The notes under the pieces: model-generated
The model's input: only the letters and a program-made list of their open reading frames with translations
Told to the model about the DNA's origin: nothing
Database searches by the model: none
Made by a program: the position numbers and the translations under genes
Origin: a virus
Taxonomy: Duplodnaviria > Heunggongvirae > Uroviricota > Caudoviricetes
Virus record (IMG/VR): IMGVR_UViG_2724679172_000007
Length of the DNA: 51,134 nt
Reading direction: 5' to 3' (one strand)
In this document: positions 29,585 through 35,136 of the stretch, piece after piece
Layout of the letters: every line of letters starts with the position of its first letter
Numbering within the stretch: position 1 is the first letter of the stretch

Positions 29585-30352
29585 TCACCCCATAGATATC
29601 GAGGTTTCGGTAATAATACGTTTTGCGTCCAACTCCCATGCTGTGATCACGTCTGTAATCACACTTATCGGCGCTTGTGTGGCATAAATACGCTCTTCTC
29701 CAATTGGTGCTGAAACATCCGTAAAGCCGACTTCTTTGGCATCCTGTATCGAGCAAATCAGCGGGACCGGGACACGAACAAGGTGAGTGGTTGCTTCAAA
29801 TTGTGTACCTGTCATCAGGCGAAGCCGTGCGCCCAGCGAATTACACATCAGACTCATGGTCGCTTTATCAGTTGCCATTAACGTAACGTCATACGTCAGA
29901 ATGGCCTGGGTGTATTCCAGTTCTGCTAAAGGCATTCCGGTATCCGGTTCGCAAAAACTGGCTACTTTTTTGCGGTCAATCTGCTGATCATCGTTGATAT
30001 AATTGATATCCATAGTGCGTGAGATATTGACCAGGGGGAGAGCATCCCGGTTAATGTTCTGGTTTTCAGGTTTTCTCCCTTGCCCGGCATTTGCGCGACG
30101 AACTGCTTTAAGAAACTCGATCGCATTGTCGAAACGGGCCACATAGACACGCTCTGCTGGTGGACGATTCAGGAATGACGCAAAGCGTTTTTCTTCCGGC
30201 GCGGGGGCCACCAGTAAGATATCAGAAAAGATATTGCTGATTAGCGTAGCAAACGCGTTATCCACGTTTTCAAAGCCCGTGGTCTGGAATTTTCCTGTGC
30301 GTGAGGTTTGCCATTCACCTGTTCGCGCCAGGAGGGTTTTATTTGAAGTCAT
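29585..30352 (-). CDS. Phage structural protein (hypothetical)
   Basis: 255-aa ORF with SD GGAGTGA; in an operon with the baseplate hub/spike genes. Confidence 0.3.
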   Translation of the reverse strand: MTSNKTLLARTGEWQTSRTGKFQTTGFENVDNAFATLISNIFSDILLVAPAPEEKRFASFLNRPPAERVYVARFDNAIEFLKAVRRANAGQGRKPENQNINRDALPLVNISRTMDINYINDDQQIDRKKVASFCEPDTGMPLAELEYTQAILTYDVTLMATDKATMSLMCNSLGARLRLMTGTQFEATTHLVRVPVPLICSIQDAKEVGFTDVSAPIGEERIYATQAPISVITDVITAWELDAKRIITETSISMG

Positions 30353-31140
30353 TCGATCACTCCGTTTTGAGTCGTATCAAAATTCCTGGCTGGTATGCAG
30401 TAGTAAAGCGAACCAACATGCTGTGTGCCGTAGCTAAAAATACGGTGCACGTACCACCAGCGGCGGGCTACGCCGTTTACCATCTCTTCATTCCATTCAA
30501 GAATTGAGCCGACGGGGACGTTATTTGCTGCAATACGCAGAATCAGAACATCATCGGTTAAGCCATCCTGCTCACCGTCTGCGTCAATCGCATGGAAAGA
30601 GTCACGCCCGTCCGGGTTATCCAGCACATAAACGATTTCAGGTTCCTGGTAAGTCAGTTCGCGTTGGTTGTTATCCAGTTCAGTGAATGACTCTTCTCCT
30701 GTTTCGTCGCTGACTACCCCATATGTGCCAACATCTGGTCGATATAAGAGAGCCTGAAACGCGTCTGGGCTGGATTCAATAATCAGCATCCAGTCTGTGC
30801 GGATTTGGTCGTTAAAGGCTTTATGCCCGTTATAGCGTGCTTTTAGCTGTGGAGTTGGTTCTCTGCCAGCCAGGGAAGGTGGAAGTATGGCTATATCTGA
30901 TTCGCCAGCATCTGGAGTAAGGCCACCGTTGCTATCAGCAAAATTATCATGGCTATCAGCTTTGGCGGCGGGTTGCTCTTCCAGAATGCTGAATGAATCC
31001 GAACTGGTATTGCCATGTTCCGGCGCGCCTCCTGCATTCGCTTCAATCGGCGCTGGCGTTTCTCTCTGCGTGCTGTCATGTTCTGACTCCTTACTTGCCA
31101 GGTTTGCATCGTCAGAAAACCATTCGTCAAAACGGCCCAT
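30349..31140 (-). CDS. Hypothetical protein (acidic, low-complexity N-terminal half)
   Basis: Start placed at the ATG at 31140 with a GAGG SD 8 nt upstream; the track's longer start lacks an SD. Confidence 0.35.
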   Translation of the reverse strand: MGRFDEWFSDDANLASKESEHDSTQRETPAPIEANAGGAPEHGNTSSDSFSILEEQPAAKADSHDNFADSNGGLTPDAGESDIAILPPSLAGREPTPQLKARYNGHKAFNDQIRTDWMLIIESSPDAFQALLYRPDVGTYGVVSDETGEESFTELDNNQRELTYQEPEIVYVLDNPDGRDSFHAIDADGEQDGLTDDVLILRIAANNVPVGSILEWNEEMVNGVARRWWYVHRIFSYGTQHVGSLYYCIPARNFDTTQNGVIE

Positions 31141-31210
31141 AAGCATCCTCAAAGGTCGATTTATCAGGTATCGAGGGTGCATTGTCTGGAGATTGTGATT
31201 TCAATTCATA

Positions 31211-31255
31211 TCCCAGCATGGGACTAAAGTGCTTTACATTGTCCCATATTGGGAC
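31211..31255. promoter_or_regulatory. Putative HigA operator: two copies of the inverted repeat TCCCA-N3-TGGGAC
   Basis: tcccagcatgggac (31211-31224) and gtcccatattgggac (31241-31255) just upstream of higB. Confidence 0.4.
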
Positions 31256-31285
31256 TACTATACTTTCAGAGAGAAGGAATCTGTG

Positions 31286-31588
31286 ATGAAAATAATTTCG
31301 GTAAAAACACTAAGGGATTTCTGGGCGAAGAATCCCGATGCAGAACAGCCATTAAAGGCATGGGTTGATGAAGCAACAAAGGCTGACTGGAAAAATCCGG
31401 CTGAGATCAAAGAACAGTACCGGACAGCCAGCATCCTTAAAAACAGGCGCGTGGTGTTCAATATTAAGGGAAATGATTACAGGTTAATTGTCGCAATTGC
31501 TTATCAGCGAGGATGGATGTTCGTTAAGTTTATTGGAACACATAAGGAATACGATGCCATTGAAGCGGATACAATAGAACTGGAGTAA
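31286..31588 (+). CDS. higB: Type II toxin HigB (RelE/ParE superfamily mRNA interferase)
   Basis: 100 aa; pattern KxLxDFW...KAW...WKNPAEIK...VFNIKGNDYRLI...FIGTHKEYD matches HigB toxins; toxin-first order with a downstream HTH antitoxin. Confidence 0.65.
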   Translation: MKIISVKTLRDFWAKNPDAEQPLKAWVDEATKADWKNPAEIKEQYRTASILKNRRVVFNIKGNDYRLIVAIAYQRGWMFVKFIGTHKEYDAIEADTIELE

Positions 31589-31591
31589 ATC

Positions 31592-31951
31592 ATGAACATT
31601 AAACCTATCCGTACAGAACAAGATTATGAGGCCGCACTGCGTGCGGTCGAACCGATGTTCGATAATGAACCGGAAATGAACACACCGGAAGGCGATTTCT
31701 TTGAGGTTATGTGTCTTCTCATTGAGGAGTACGAGAAAAAACATTACCCAATTGAGCCACCATCACCTATTGAGGCCATTAAATTCCGTATGGAACAGCA
31801 AGGACTGACCGTGAAGGATCTGGAACCGGCAATTGGTAAGTCAAACCGTGTTTACGAAGTGCTTAATGGGACACGAAATTTGACGTTACCTATGATTCGT
31901 CGTTTACATGCCCAGTTTGGTATTCCACTGGAAAGTCTGGTTGGTGTTTAA
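31592..31951 (+). CDS. higA: Antitoxin HigA (XRE-family HTH)
   Basis: 119 aa, 4 nt after higB; C-terminal HTH (LTVKDLEPAIGKSNRVYEVLNGTRNLTLPMIRRLHAQFGIP). Confidence 0.65.
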   Translation: MNIKPIRTEQDYEAALRAVEPMFDNEPEMNTPEGDFFEVMCLLIEEYEKKHYPIEPPSPIEAIKFRMEQQGLTVKDLEPAIGKSNRVYEVLNGTRNLTLPMIRRLHAQFGIPLESLVGV

Positions 31952-31956
31952 GTTTT

Positions 31957-31977
31957 GCGGTCTGGATGACCGCTTTT
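31957..31977 (+). terminator. Intrinsic terminator after higA
   Basis: gcggtc-tggat-gaccgc followed by TTTT. Confidence 0.45.
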
Positions 31978-32011
31978 ACATAAAATCAATGTTTAAATAT
32001 TTGGTAATTAT

Positions 32012-32746
32012 ATGAGCGCTGATTCATCAATAGAAAAGGAAAACTCCTCTACCCAAAATCTGTTAGAAGATGCTGTAAAAGATAAGTTGTTTAATAAGGT
32101 TTTTGCCTACATTTTTATTTCGTTTTTAATTTCTAATTGGCGAGACATATTTATATTACTGAAGTCAAAAGATGATGTTATGTATACATTATCTATAGTG
32201 TTTGTCGGGGAAAAGATCCCATTATTGGGGAATCTTTTTTTACCATCGTTCGTAGCTCATTTTGTTTTGCCTTTTATTTATGGTGTTGTGGCGTCAATAT
32301 TAGCGCCACTGTTAACCCTGTTAATTTCTTTGGTGACAAGCACATTATATGCTAAATTAAGAAAAATAGATGAAATTGCAAATAAAAAAGAACAAATAAG
32401 GACAATTAACAGTGATATTAAGAAAGCCATTAAGAAGCAGAGAGACGTTAAAAAGTATATTGAACAAGAAGAAGAAGAACTTGAATCATTAGAAAAACGG
32501 CTTAAAGAAATTAGGGAACAGATTGAATGTGTGGATAGCGATATCATTCATATTATTAAATTATATAGAGAGAAAGGTGAGAGCTTAAATTCGGTGGATG
32601 ATTTTTATGAATTTTTTACCGCCGTGAAAAACTCATCTTTTCGTTCGGGTGATACAAATGACAGGGAAACACTTGAGGAGCTTCTCTCAAAGCTTTCTGA
32701 TTCACTTGAAAAAATTAAATGCGATGCTAATAAAAAGGTGGGATAA
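32012..32746 (+). CDS. Low-GC membrane-anchored coiled-coil protein (unknown function; candidate exclusion/abortive-infection effector)
   Basis: 244 aa; conspicuously AT-rich codon usage compared with flanks; hydrophobic segments (FAYIFISFLISNW; LFLPSFVAHFVLPFIYGVVASILAPLLTLLISLVTSTLY) followed by a charged heptad-like region (KKEQIRTINSDIKKAIKKQRDVKKYIEQEEEELESLEKRLKEIREQIE). Confidence 0.5.
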   Translation: MSADSSIEKENSSTQNLLEDAVKDKLFNKVFAYIFISFLISNWRDIFILLKSKDDVMYTLSIVFVGEKIPLLGNLFLPSFVAHFVLPFIYGVVASILAPLLTLLISLVTSTLYAKLRKIDEIANKKEQIRTINSDIKKAIKKQRDVKKYIEQEEEELESLEKRLKEIREQIECVDSDIIHIIKLYREKGESLNSVDDFYEFFTAVKNSSFRSGDTNDRETLEELLSKLSDSLEKIKCDANKKVG

Positions 32747-32767
32747 ACCCACCTTTGTTAATTTTTT
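32734..32767. terminator. Bidirectional intrinsic terminator between convergent genes
   Basis: aaaggtggg-ataaa-cccaccttt hairpin followed by a T-run; overlaps the stop of the 32012..32746 gene. Confidence 0.5.
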
Positions 32768-33948
32768 ATGTACTCCATGAACATTTTTTCAGCTTGTGCT
32801 GGTGGTGTTCCAGCCATGACAAGCGCATCAATGAACGCCTGCTTCTTCAGTGCGAACTGATCGGCCAGGCGTTGCTGAAGCTCCTTGTTTTTCTGTTTCT
32901 CACGTTGCAACGCCGCTTCTTTTGCTGCCGCCCGTTTTTTCTGTGCGTCTGACAACTTTCTGACCTTGGTCAGTTGGTCACGTAGCTTGTCAATCTTGCC
33001 GTTGTCCTTTGCCAGTTTTGTGCTTAAAGCGGCCTGGCGCTTCTGATAGAGCCTCCATTCTCGCTTGGCAGCGTCAACGTTCGTTTTACTGCTACGATTG
33101 CGATTAAACTCCTTCTCGTCTTCTTTTGAGAAGTGTTTGGTTGTACGGCGGCGATCGTCACCAAATGCAATTTGCGTTGCAGCCTTTTGTAGCGCACGAG
33201 CAATACTCATTTGCCAACTGGCGGACTGTAACCGCGTCATTGAGTGGATCACGTGTTTACAGGCGACGCCTTGCAGCTTCGGGTTGCGAACTTTTGGATA
33301 GGCGTATTCTTTTGGCGGTGCCAGGGCAAAGTTACCCGCAGTGGCGATGTAACGATACCAGTATTGATGACGACCACAGTCACAATCGAAAGACACTCGC
33401 CCGGCGCACAGTGATTTAGTGATTTTGAGAGCTGATTTATCGTCTTCTGCGATATCATCAACCATCTGATCCCATTCTTCAAAGCGTATCCGGACGATAT
33501 GGTGCTGGTGGACGGATATATCCGATGCTTCTACGCGGATATTAATCACATTGTGGCGAAGAGATACGGGTGTAGCTCTTTTGATACCAGATCCGTCATC
33601 CACGGCGTTATTTGCACGCTTAATATCGATTGCCTGGCTGGATGCCACCAGCTGGGCGTATGTGATGCCAGCCGTCTTGCTGTCATATTTTTCGCGCGTT
33701 TTACTCCGGAGCTTTTCGAAACCTTTCAGGTCGTCTCGCGTGAAGAACGTGCCGCCTTTTTTCTTCCCTAACTTGAGAATATCTTCGGCGGATTTGTTCC
33801 TCAGTCTACCTGGCGTCAGCGTCCGGTGAGCTTGCCGGCGCTTACGGGTTTGTTCTTTCCTGATAAGGTCGAATAAACGCGTGAAGTCCTTAGAGGACAG
33901 GCCGTCAGTGATATAGCGCCCGTCCTGGTTTTTCAGGAAATCAGGCAT
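32758..33948 (-). CDS. SWIM-type zinc-finger-containing protein with basic coiled-coil C-terminus (function unknown)
   Basis: 396 aa; CxC-x(n)-CxH signature (FDCDCGRHQYW ... VACKHVIH); C-terminal Lys/Arg/Gln/Ala-rich region; good SD (GGAGATAG). Confidence 0.45.
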   Translation of the reverse strand: MPDFLKNQDGRYITDGLSSKDFTRLFDLIRKEQTRKRRQAHRTLTPGRLRNKSAEDILKLGKKKGGTFFTRDDLKGFEKLRSKTREKYDSKTAGITYAQLVASSQAIDIKRANNAVDDGSGIKRATPVSLRHNVINIRVEASDISVHQHHIVRIRFEEWDQMVDDIAEDDKSALKITKSLCAGRVSFDCDCGRHQYWYRYIATAGNFALAPPKEYAYPKVRNPKLQGVACKHVIHSMTRLQSASWQMSIARALQKAATQIAFGDDRRRTTKHFSKEDEKEFNRNRSSKTNVDAAKREWRLYQKRQAALSTKLAKDNGKIDKLRDQLTKVRKLSDAQKKRAAAKEAALQREKQKNKELQQRLADQFALKKQAFIDALVMAGTPPAQAEKMFMEYIKN

Positions 33949-34270
33949 TTTCTATCTCCGGTTCCGCGCTCGCGTAATCACGGATCTTATTCCTCAGCCA
34001 TGCCACATCAGGAAGAGTTAACGTGGTCCCGGCGGGCATTTCTTCCATTTCTGACTCATGGCCCACCAGCACCCGGAATACCCAGCGCAAATCTGCATTG
34101 CCATACGCCCTGTAGGCTGCAAGGTCTGAACGATATACTTCATCAATCTTTATCGTGTACTGGAAATTATCAGAGTGATACTCCGATACCCGCTTAATCA
34201 TTTCCTGGTGAAACAGCGCACGAAAAATATCGTCTTCAATGTACCTATCGTCGAGTCTGCTATAGCCCAT
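33941..34270 (-). CDS. Hypothetical protein (first gene of the two-gene operon with the SWIM protein)
   Basis: 109-aa ORF with SD GAGGGG; stop overlaps the start of the downstream gene. Confidence 0.45.
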   Translation of the reverse strand: MGYSRLDDRYIEDDIFRALFHQEMIKRVSEYHSDNFQYTIKIDEVYRSDLAAYRAYGNADLRWVFRVLVGHESEMEEMPAGTTLTLPDVAWLRNKIRDYASAEPEIENA

Positions 34271-34331
34271 AACAAAGCCCCTCAGTCATAACCTGGGGAA
34301 AACTGTATGCAGGGTGTGAAATGCGAGAAAG

Positions 34332-34357
34332 CAGCGTCACCAGGCCTGGTGACGCTG
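34332..34357. terminator. Perfect 26-bp palindrome (terminator/operator) downstream of the higBA-2 operon
   Basis: cagcgtcaccagg|cctggtgacgctg. Confidence 0.4.
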
Positions 34358-34362
34358 TGAAA

Positions 34363-34656
34363 TTATGCGTGGAAAAATAATGGACGGATGTTTGGGCGAG
34401 TGGTTTGCGAAGCAACCCAAAGCTCATACTGGGATTGCATACCGGTCCACATTTCGGCACTGGTTCCAAGAGCGGACTCCAGACGAAGTGCCATATCAGC
34501 AGATATACCTGCTTTTTCATTCAGAATTCGGGAAAGCGCCGTGCGAGTAATGCCTAATGCCGCAGCGGCGTCTGTGACTGACATGTCTCCCAAATATTCA
34601 CGAAGAACCGCGCCTGGATGCGCGGGATTATGCATACGACTCATAGTGTTCCTCAA
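34363..34656 (-). CDS. higA: Antitoxin HigA-2 family (HTH, antidote protein)
   Basis: 97 aa; MHNPAHPG...[37 protein letters not shown] matches the HigA antidote family pattern. Confidence 0.6.
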
Positions 34657-34931
34657 TGATAATCCTGATAGTCAACTAGAATTGCGTCTTCTCCTTCAAA
34701 TCGGAAGGTAAGTCGCCAGTTACCGTTTACCGATATTGCCCAGTGACCTTTAAGGTCCGCCCCCTTTAGAGGGTGCAATTCCCATCCAGGCGCAGACATA
34801 TCGTCCGGGCGTTTAGCTGTATTAAGCGCAGTCAATTGAATGCGTAGCTTAACCGCATGTTTGGCCTGAATGCCTGCGGTTGAACCTGTCTTGAAAAAGC
34901 GTTCAAGCCCTTTATGGCGAAATGACTTAAT
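34653..34931 (-). CDS. higB: Toxin HigB-2 (plasmid maintenance system killer protein family)
   Basis: [16 protein letters not shown]...[40 protein letters not shown] matches the killer-protein family; probable TTG start at 34931; stop overlaps the antitoxin start. Confidence 0.55.
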
Positions 34932-35136
34932 CAAAATAATTCCATTCGTGCGTGCAACCTGTGTATATACGCTACACGCAGAAAGAGTAAAATGCAAGCA
35001 CTATCCGTATAGACAGAGTTTTTTCGCCACCCTGGAATTTATTGACTGTCAACAAGTGACTTTCATTAATCTTAAGGCGTGGACCAGCTCGATAGTGAGC
35101 TGGGTGTTATTTACCGATCGAATGGATTCGAAAAGA

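Follow-up and report, generated by a model that had tools for sequence, protein, structure and literature searches.

The present analysis concerns a 51,134-nucleotide stretch of DNA (hereafter the window) from a tailed virus of the Caudoviricetes, held as IMG/VR record IMGVR_UViG_2724679172_000007, and within it two adjoining genes on the minus strand between positions 32758 and 34270. Comparison with annotated relatives shows the pair, by homology, to be the D6-lineage orthologues of the late morphogenetic genes 26 and 25 of phage P1, and the source element is a D6-like member of the P1-family phage-plasmids. In the explanation of the whole that is favoured here, with confidence somewhat better than even, these counterparts of P1 26 and 25 would comprise a baseplate protein, gp26, and a zinc-stabilised accessory factor of contractile-tail assembly, gp25. 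The identity of the pair is carried by close similarity to D6 and P1, whereas the proposed role of gp25 draws on an invariant Cys/His core with a predicted SWIM-like fold, on the placement of its gene in tail and neck modules, and on its absence from the ordered density of the P1 virion.

The two open reading frames (ORFs), one of 109 amino acids (aa) at 33941-34270 and the other of 396 aa (isoelectric point, pI, 10.1) at 32758-33948, both on the minus strand, lie where an earlier reading of the letters without database searches (the sequence-only reading) had placed them, and the strings FDCDCGRH and CKHVIH on which it had relied are present (C189, C191, C230, H232 and H235). At the DNA level, these 1.5 kb share 98.6% identity with the P1-like plasmid prophage D6 (Escherichia phage D6), and among plasmids the wider region is matched best by one of 94 kb from E. 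coli (99.3%). The 109-aa protein is 100% identical to D6 orf75, which the D6 record labels ‘similar to P1 gene 26’, and the 396-aa protein is 98.7% identical to D6 orf74, labelled ‘similar to P1 gene 25’; the latter also aligns with P1 gp25 itself at 57% identity over aa 1-334 (tblastn against P1, E 2e-112). Among the PHROG families, the 396-aa protein matches phrog_1722 ‘tail protein’ across aa 2-395 (E 1.1e-196) and the 109-aa protein matches phrog_1269 ‘baseplate wedge subunit’ (E 2.3e-36). In view of these E-values and of the 655 gp25-family members returned when 1.84 billion cluster representatives were searched with a profile, both ORFs are real genes and not chance ORFs. P1 gp25 and D6 orf74 (PHROG 1722 / 4315) hold the same place downstream of gene 26 and carry the same Cys/His tetrad as the window protein, although the C-terminal 60 residues diverge between the window protein and P1 gp25. 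Since the D6 labels, the identity to P1 gp25 and the PHROG matches all bear on the same assignment, the pair has a known phage function at the genetic level, and the earlier statement that it could not be assigned to one is superseded: its members are the counterparts of a gp53-like baseplate protein and of an amber-defined ‘tail stability’ gene. The framing as genes of unknown function is wrong for gp26 and half right for gp25; Pfam and NCBIfam searches of the 396-aa protein gave no family, and no PDB chain was matched by sequence, whether the query was the protein or a 135-sequence profile.

For gp26, the assignment reaches down to a position in the virion. The 109-aa protein matches the P1 Gp26 chains of PDB entries 9ay5 (9ay5_S) and 9vzk (E 1e-16, 40.6% identity over 96 residues) and is shorter than P1 gp26 (125 aa). 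An HHpred probability of 98.9% has been reported for P1 gp26 against T4 gp53, and two cryo-electron microscopy (cryo-EM) studies of P1, a 2025 preprint and a 2026 study, model six gp26 copies joining the wedge ring to the hub. By homology to these solved structures, the window protein is shown to be the T4 gp53-like (LysM-like) baseplate ‘plug’, predicted to connect the wedge ring to the central hub in six copies. The corresponding Pfam families, PF11246 Phage_gp53 (13.6 bits, cutoff 21) and the LysM-type PF05489 Phage_tail_X (13.2 bits, cutoff 22), were both recovered below threshold.

P1 gene 25 is cited as a classical amber-defined ‘tail stability’ gene. Its product was recovered from virions by tandem mass spectrometry coupled to liquid chromatography (LC-MS/MS) as only two peptides (8.4% coverage) and had no match exceeding 50% in HHpred; a cofactor role was left open by the authors. 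The 2026 cryo-EM study, which claims to have identified almost all of the head-to-tail proteins and assigns gp7 as the stopper and gp24 as the terminator, never mentions gp25; the 2025 preprint likewise makes no mention of it, and the PDB holds chains of P1 Gp26 and Gp7 and none of gp25. Because gp25 is absent from two high-resolution reconstructions, gives a weak mass-spectrometric signal and is consistently placed in tail or neck modules, it would appear to be an accessory factor that acts transiently or in low copy number, as opposed to an ordered building block of fixed stoichiometry. In such a scheme, gp25 would be co-produced with gp26 from a translationally coupled message, and its zinc-stabilised core would serve as a protein-binding module during assembly of the baseplate, tail or neck. 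Its action would keep the finished tail in the extended state, after which gp25 would depart or persist in a few disordered copies only, while its basic helical extensions may tether it to acidic partner surfaces, as in scaffolding-type proteins.

The gp25 family carries a putative zinc site (C189-x-C191 ... C230-K-H232, together with a conserved 38-residue insert; 33253-33384, minus strand). C189, C191, C230 and H232 are invariant in 114 full-length close homologues and also in 135 diverged representatives, the latter being the family members of at least 300 aa, reaching down to ~23% identity. The spacing from C191 to C230 is 37 or 38 residues in 127 of these 135 (range 36-43). Within the insert, E214, P218, N222 and G227 are invariant across the same set, K219 and L225 are nearly so and P223 is conserved as well; with invariant residues of its own, the insert is not a loose loop. 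In all likelihood, the CxC-x37/38-CKH tetrad holds a single zinc ion within a SWIM-like fold, and the insert (E..PK[IV]RNP...G) between the half-sites probably forms the working surface of gp25.

Whether this core should be called a SWIM domain depends on the level at which the comparison is made. Canonical SWIM domains have a CxC-to-CxH spacer of ~6-25 residues and occur in helicases, transposases and ubiquitin ligases. The half-sites of gp25, in contrast, are separated by a conserved insert of 37-38 residues, and its context is phage tail and neck morphogenesis. Scored against the Pfam SWIM model (PF04434), gp25 gave no match at E <= 1 over its full length or at E <= 10 over the motif region. 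When the insert was artificially deleted, SWIM emerged as the only or the top Pfam family, at 13.9 bits against a cutoff of 19.6, and phmmer searches of this insert-deleted motif against the PDB returned no SWIM proteins. No precomputed Pfam domain is recorded on any gp25 homologue among those listed, nor on any of 35 short-form relatives. The predicted fold of gp25, on the other hand, resembles that of a solved SWIM domain (for example ZSWIM8, PDB 9rwz). The SWIM zinc finger proposed in the sequence-only reading thus survives in its invariant C-x-C...C-x-H ligands and in the SWIM-like predicted fold, and fails as a canonical assignment, given the spacer of 37-38 residues and the missed Pfam threshold. 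Our conclusion is that the gp25 core has a SWIM-like predicted fold with a family-specific conserved insert and is not a member of the family at the Pfam level. In the literature searched, neither a SWIM-like zinc core in gp25 nor its spread over myophages of four phyla was found.

The core, some 170 residues in length (aa 88-262; 33163-33687, minus strand), is conserved and is predicted to consist of a three-stranded sheet, helices and the Cys/His site. Its AlphaFold2 model is very confident (pLDDT 94.6, pTM 0.90), and that of the full-length protein is confident (pLDDT 82.6, pTM 0.72); in both, C189 closes a beta-strand, C191 opens a helix, and C230 and H232 open the next helix. The core is preceded by a basic helical region (aa 1-87; 33688-33948, minus strand), with predicted helices at 19-39, 46-59 and 71-87 and a pI of 10.6 for aa 1-60, which is weakly conserved outside the P1-like phages and missing from the short forms of the family. 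It is followed by a basic helical tail (aa 263-396; 32761-33162, minus strand) of pI 10.2, in which 35 Lys and Arg stand against 19 Asp and Glu and for which two long antiparallel helices are predicted (291-330 and 334-378; pLDDT about 62-86), with a small helix-turn-helix-like motif at the end (helix 383-395). The earlier description of a basic C-terminal tail was therefore accurate, the C-terminal third being both basic and predicted helical. Across the family, the tail is net positive in 98% of the representatives and its sequence is not conserved, G380 and A386 being invariant among the close homologues; both basic extensions would seem to be P1-lineage-specific additions. Apart from this, many C-termini of the family (window aa 372-396, proteins P0151, P0173 and P0196, the homologue in Xanthomonas phage Rb1 and others) contain one or two copies of a motif of ~25 aa with a helix-turn-helix look (for example ‘...FNMTSEQLGSFMQEHGI’), and the C-terminal tails gave no consistent Pfam match to HeH/SAP or other known domains. 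A Foldseek search of the gp25 model against the PDB gave no match below E 0.38, and it has no structural likeness to the solved tail, baseplate or neck proteins of phages.

The genomic company kept by the family points in the direction of tail assembly. The ORFs of 163 loci (81 close and 82 remote, the latter from viral contigs of 60-118 kb) were searched with jackhmmer, and in 157 of them the gp25-like gene is immediately preceded by a gp26-like one (78 of the 81 close and 79 of the 82 remote loci), so that the co-occurrence proposed earlier as a check on the pair is found across genomes. The distance between stop and start is also kept tight: 56 of 78 close loci have -8 nt, and 61 of 80 remote ones have +1 or -1 nt. 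In the remote phages, the genes run in the order tail fibre, fibre assembly protein, gp26-like, gp25-like and phrog_4597; the last of these reached an hhalign probability of only 4.6% against the gp7-type stopper and had no PDB match. In P1, gene 25 stands between the plug gene (26) and the genes for the stopper (7) and the terminator (24).

Beyond the full-length proteins, core-only relatives of 130-289 aa are encoded by the myophages HSE3 and SP-15 of Bacillus, LIS04 of Listeria, GXN1 of Streptococcus, Molly and Colly of Maribacter and phiLo of Thermus. These short forms share the spacing and the internal residues, and the C-x-C, one Tyr, the N-P and the C-K-H are invariant across all of them, over four phyla. 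In HSE3, SP-15, LIS04, GXN1 and a 110-kb metagenomic phage, the core gene is part of the neck block, between a gp13-type neck/adaptor gene and the tail-completion, sheath-stabiliser and sheath genes, and Thornevirus also carries a core protein inside its neck block. In phiLo, the core gene adjoins baseplate wedge genes, and in two further contigs its context is less clear.

Several observations on individual members of the family may be added. Core-only proteins between a T4 gp13-like gene and the sheath gene are found at L164:6806-7351, L167:4956-5510, L168:4956-5510, L165:6518-7387 and L171:7001-7702 (large Gram-positive myophages and one metagenomic phage), and all of them are annotated as ‘hypothetical’ or carry no annotation. 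In a 163-kb metagenomic contig (L172:5576-7534), a core-only homologue of 177 aa is encoded two genes downstream of a weak match to eCIS_core (PF13699), in a region flanked by SNF2-family helicase genes that differs from the usual neck or baseplate blocks. The homologue of Xanthomonas phage Rb1 (L083:8800-9879) has the full CxC-x37-CKH core and is labelled ‘transcriptional regulator MvaT’; it has no gp26-like gene upstream and is flanked by a Sit-like protein of 948 aa and the major capsid gene. The MvaT label is, in our estimation, probably a misannotation arising from the basic low-complexity tail.

A number of points weigh against gp25 as a zinc-stabilised accessory factor of tail assembly. 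The Pfam SWIM score stays below threshold even when the insert is removed, and the homologues listed carry no precomputed Pfam domain. Adjacency of two genes is not proof of physical interaction between their products, and no gp26-gp25 fusion occurs among 269 family proteins. A CRISPR interference screen scored P1 genes 25 and 26 as non-essential, a result that its authors read as a failed roadblock because amber mutants exist. Furthermore, gp7, a six-copy protein, gives a mass-spectrometric signal similar to that of gp25, so that gp25 may be present in the virion in low copy number or in disordered form. Finally, the amber phenotype of gene 25 could, as we see it, include polarity on the downstream P1 genes 7 and 24.

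The alternative that survives best, although it is considered unlikely, takes this virion presence at face value. Here, gp25 would be a low-copy virion protein, hidden from symmetric cryo-EM in a place such as the neck channel or tube lumen, whose basic helices and zinc core bind the packaged DNA or its ends; its function would resemble that of T4 gp2 or Mu N without homology to them. On this view, it could further be the protein joining the ends of P1-transduced DNA in abortive transductants, which to our knowledge has not been identified so far. The signal on a par with six-copy gp7 would suit such a protein, as would a pI of 10 throughout gp25 and the net positive charge of nearly all tails, and the symmetrised maps that lack gp25 also leave Sit and other flexible parts unresolved. 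The position of its gene argues in the same direction: P1 gene 25 is directly upstream of the genes for stopper gp7 and terminator gp24, and the core protein is encoded inside the neck block in Thornevirus, HSE3, GXN1 and one metagenomic phage. In T4, the genes 4 (head closure), 2 (DNA end protector) and 3 (terminator) form a cluster divergent from 53 and 5, and this arrangement (4-2-3 / 53-5) is comparable to P1 26-25-7-24-6-5, where every T4 member except gp2 finds its match; T4 gp2, Mu N and gp25 are all basic, and the genes of all three lie in the company of genes for head completion, terminator and wedge. The positional analogy is worth noting because the ends of P1 abortive transductant DNA are joined by a protein, according to a secondary statement. 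Yet the likeness is positional only, as sequence and profile similarity between T4 gp2 and gp25 is lacking; the candidacy of gp25 as a gp2 homologue was rejected, at an hhalign probability of 0.2% and with no cysteines in gp2. In addition, no DNA-binding domain was detected in gp25, nor did the tail motifs match any Pfam family; some short forms, such as that of GXN1, lack the basic tail or have an acidic one, and the strict partner in the proteobacterial lineages belongs to the baseplate, not to the neck. Every phage match with annotated tail genes is contractile-tailed, which suggests a role of the gp25 family that is specific to tails and not to DNA. The broadest version of this idea, namely that the family is an unrecognised zinc-finger class of contractile-tailed phages (in at least four phyla) and that its P1 member is a low-copy DNA-associated virion protein, the counterpart of gp2 or Mu N holding the ends of transduced DNA, may be entertained as a speculation of slightly lower probability still.

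Taking gp25 for one of the regular, ordered building blocks of the tail or baseplate is more doubtful again and amounts to an improbable reading, even though PHROG, PGAP and the D6 record all speak of a ‘tail protein’, two gp25 peptides were obtained from purified virions and the gene adjoins baseplate genes. It is already largely contradicted by the two P1 reconstructions (one of them reaching 3.2 Å for the baseplate and 3.5 Å for the connector), in which all of the ordered density is given to other proteins, as well as by the lack of a PDB chain matching gp25 and of any structural likeness to a solved phage tail protein. A nucleic-acid-binding regulator, acting in late transcription or as a nucleoid-associated protein, is what the basic character of gp25, the first proposal of SWIM domains as DNA-binding modules and the MvaT annotation of the Rb1 homologue would suggest, and it is very improbable, since the gene always belongs to morphogenesis modules, in a coupled arrangement with a baseplate gene, mutants show a morphological phenotype and no Pfam or NCBIfam regulator family matches the window protein.

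The interest of an accessory tail-assembly factor of this kind derives from the standing of P1, which is the classic transducing phage and whose relatives are widespread phage-plasmids with resistance genes. gp25 is among the very few genetically defined morphogenesis proteins of P1 that are left without a location or mechanism after two near-atomic virion structures, and its conserved, probably zinc-binding core supplies specific positions for mutagenesis and a delimited domain for expression. The core module is encountered again in myophages infecting Proteobacteria, Firmicutes, Bacteroidota and Deinococcota, and its recognition corrects loose labels (‘tail protein’, ‘MvaT regulator’). Were the DNA-end proposal true, it would bear on the survival of transduced DNA in recipient cells. 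As the gene pair itself is known, the SWIM-like core of gp25 and its spread among myophages represent a useful but modest addition.

The arrangement of the pair in the window can be described in some detail. The stop of gene 26 and the start of gene 25 overlap by 8 nt (ATGCCTGA, 33941-33948), and a GGAG at 33956-33959 precedes the ATG of gene 25 by 8 nt (33941-33959 in all, minus strand, as read from the sequence). Translational coupling of the two genes, as had been put forward, is plausible on the strength of this overlap and of the GGAG; these two elements are borne out by the letters, and the coupling as such is deduced from them. Starting 1 nt past the gene 25 stop, a hairpin at 32734-32756 (AAAGGTGGG-ATAAA-CCCACCTTT, with T-rich tails on both strands, recognised by a terminator scan and direct reading) contains the stop of a converging 244-aa ORF and is likely a bidirectional terminator that ends both the 26-25 unit and this ORF. 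In P1, the operon continues past 26-25 into genes 7-24-6-5, whereas in the D6 lineage gene 25 is separated from 7-24-6-5 by this terminator and by an opposite-strand cassette (31229-32746) located between 25 and 7. Owing to this cassette and to the hairpin after gene 25, genes 26 and 25 constitute a discrete two-gene unit here, and the description as a two-gene operon is upheld for the D6-like element.

Upstream of gene 26, alignment of the D6-like loci delimits a 60-nt leader (34271-34330, minus strand) that is kept in these elements regardless of the cassette farther upstream and is presumed to be the site of the late promoter. No sigma-70-like site was found in 32500-34600 (2.8 expected), which fits P1-type late transcription, the late genes of P1 being served by Lpa-dependent promoters; the P1 late-promoter consensus could not be assigned to the conserved leader.

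Among the neighbouring genes, the gene 7 orthologue (stopper; 30349-31182, minus strand) matches P1 Gp7 (PDB 9ums, E 8e-43) over its C-terminal 158 residues only, the N-terminal ~110 residues of the D6-type gp7, with an acidic low-complexity stretch, being unmatched by P1 Gp7. The cassette between the P1-type genes 25 and 7 (31229-32746, plus strand) comprises three ORFs in the opposite orientation. The first (31229-31588) matches PD-Lambda-2_A of PADLOC (E 1.9e-41), the second (31592-31951) matches the first 119 of the 402 positions of PD-Lambda-2_B (E 6.9e-43), and the third (32012-32746; the 244-aa ORF, phrog_8191) has a hydrophobic N-terminus, a coiled-coil C-terminus and weak LmuB/SMC-like matches. 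The cassette may be a HigBA-type toxin-antitoxin or defence cassette that splits the tail operon. A second toxin-antitoxin-like pair is located upstream of gene 26 (34363-34997, minus strand), comprising a 114-aa RelE/ParE/HigB-like ORF and a 97-aa HigA (TIGR02607, E 1.3e-28) and ending in a hairpin at 34332-34357. In place of this pair, the D6 reference holds just two tiny ORFs (orf76/77); thus, the intergenic site upstream of gene 26 varies among the D6-like elements.

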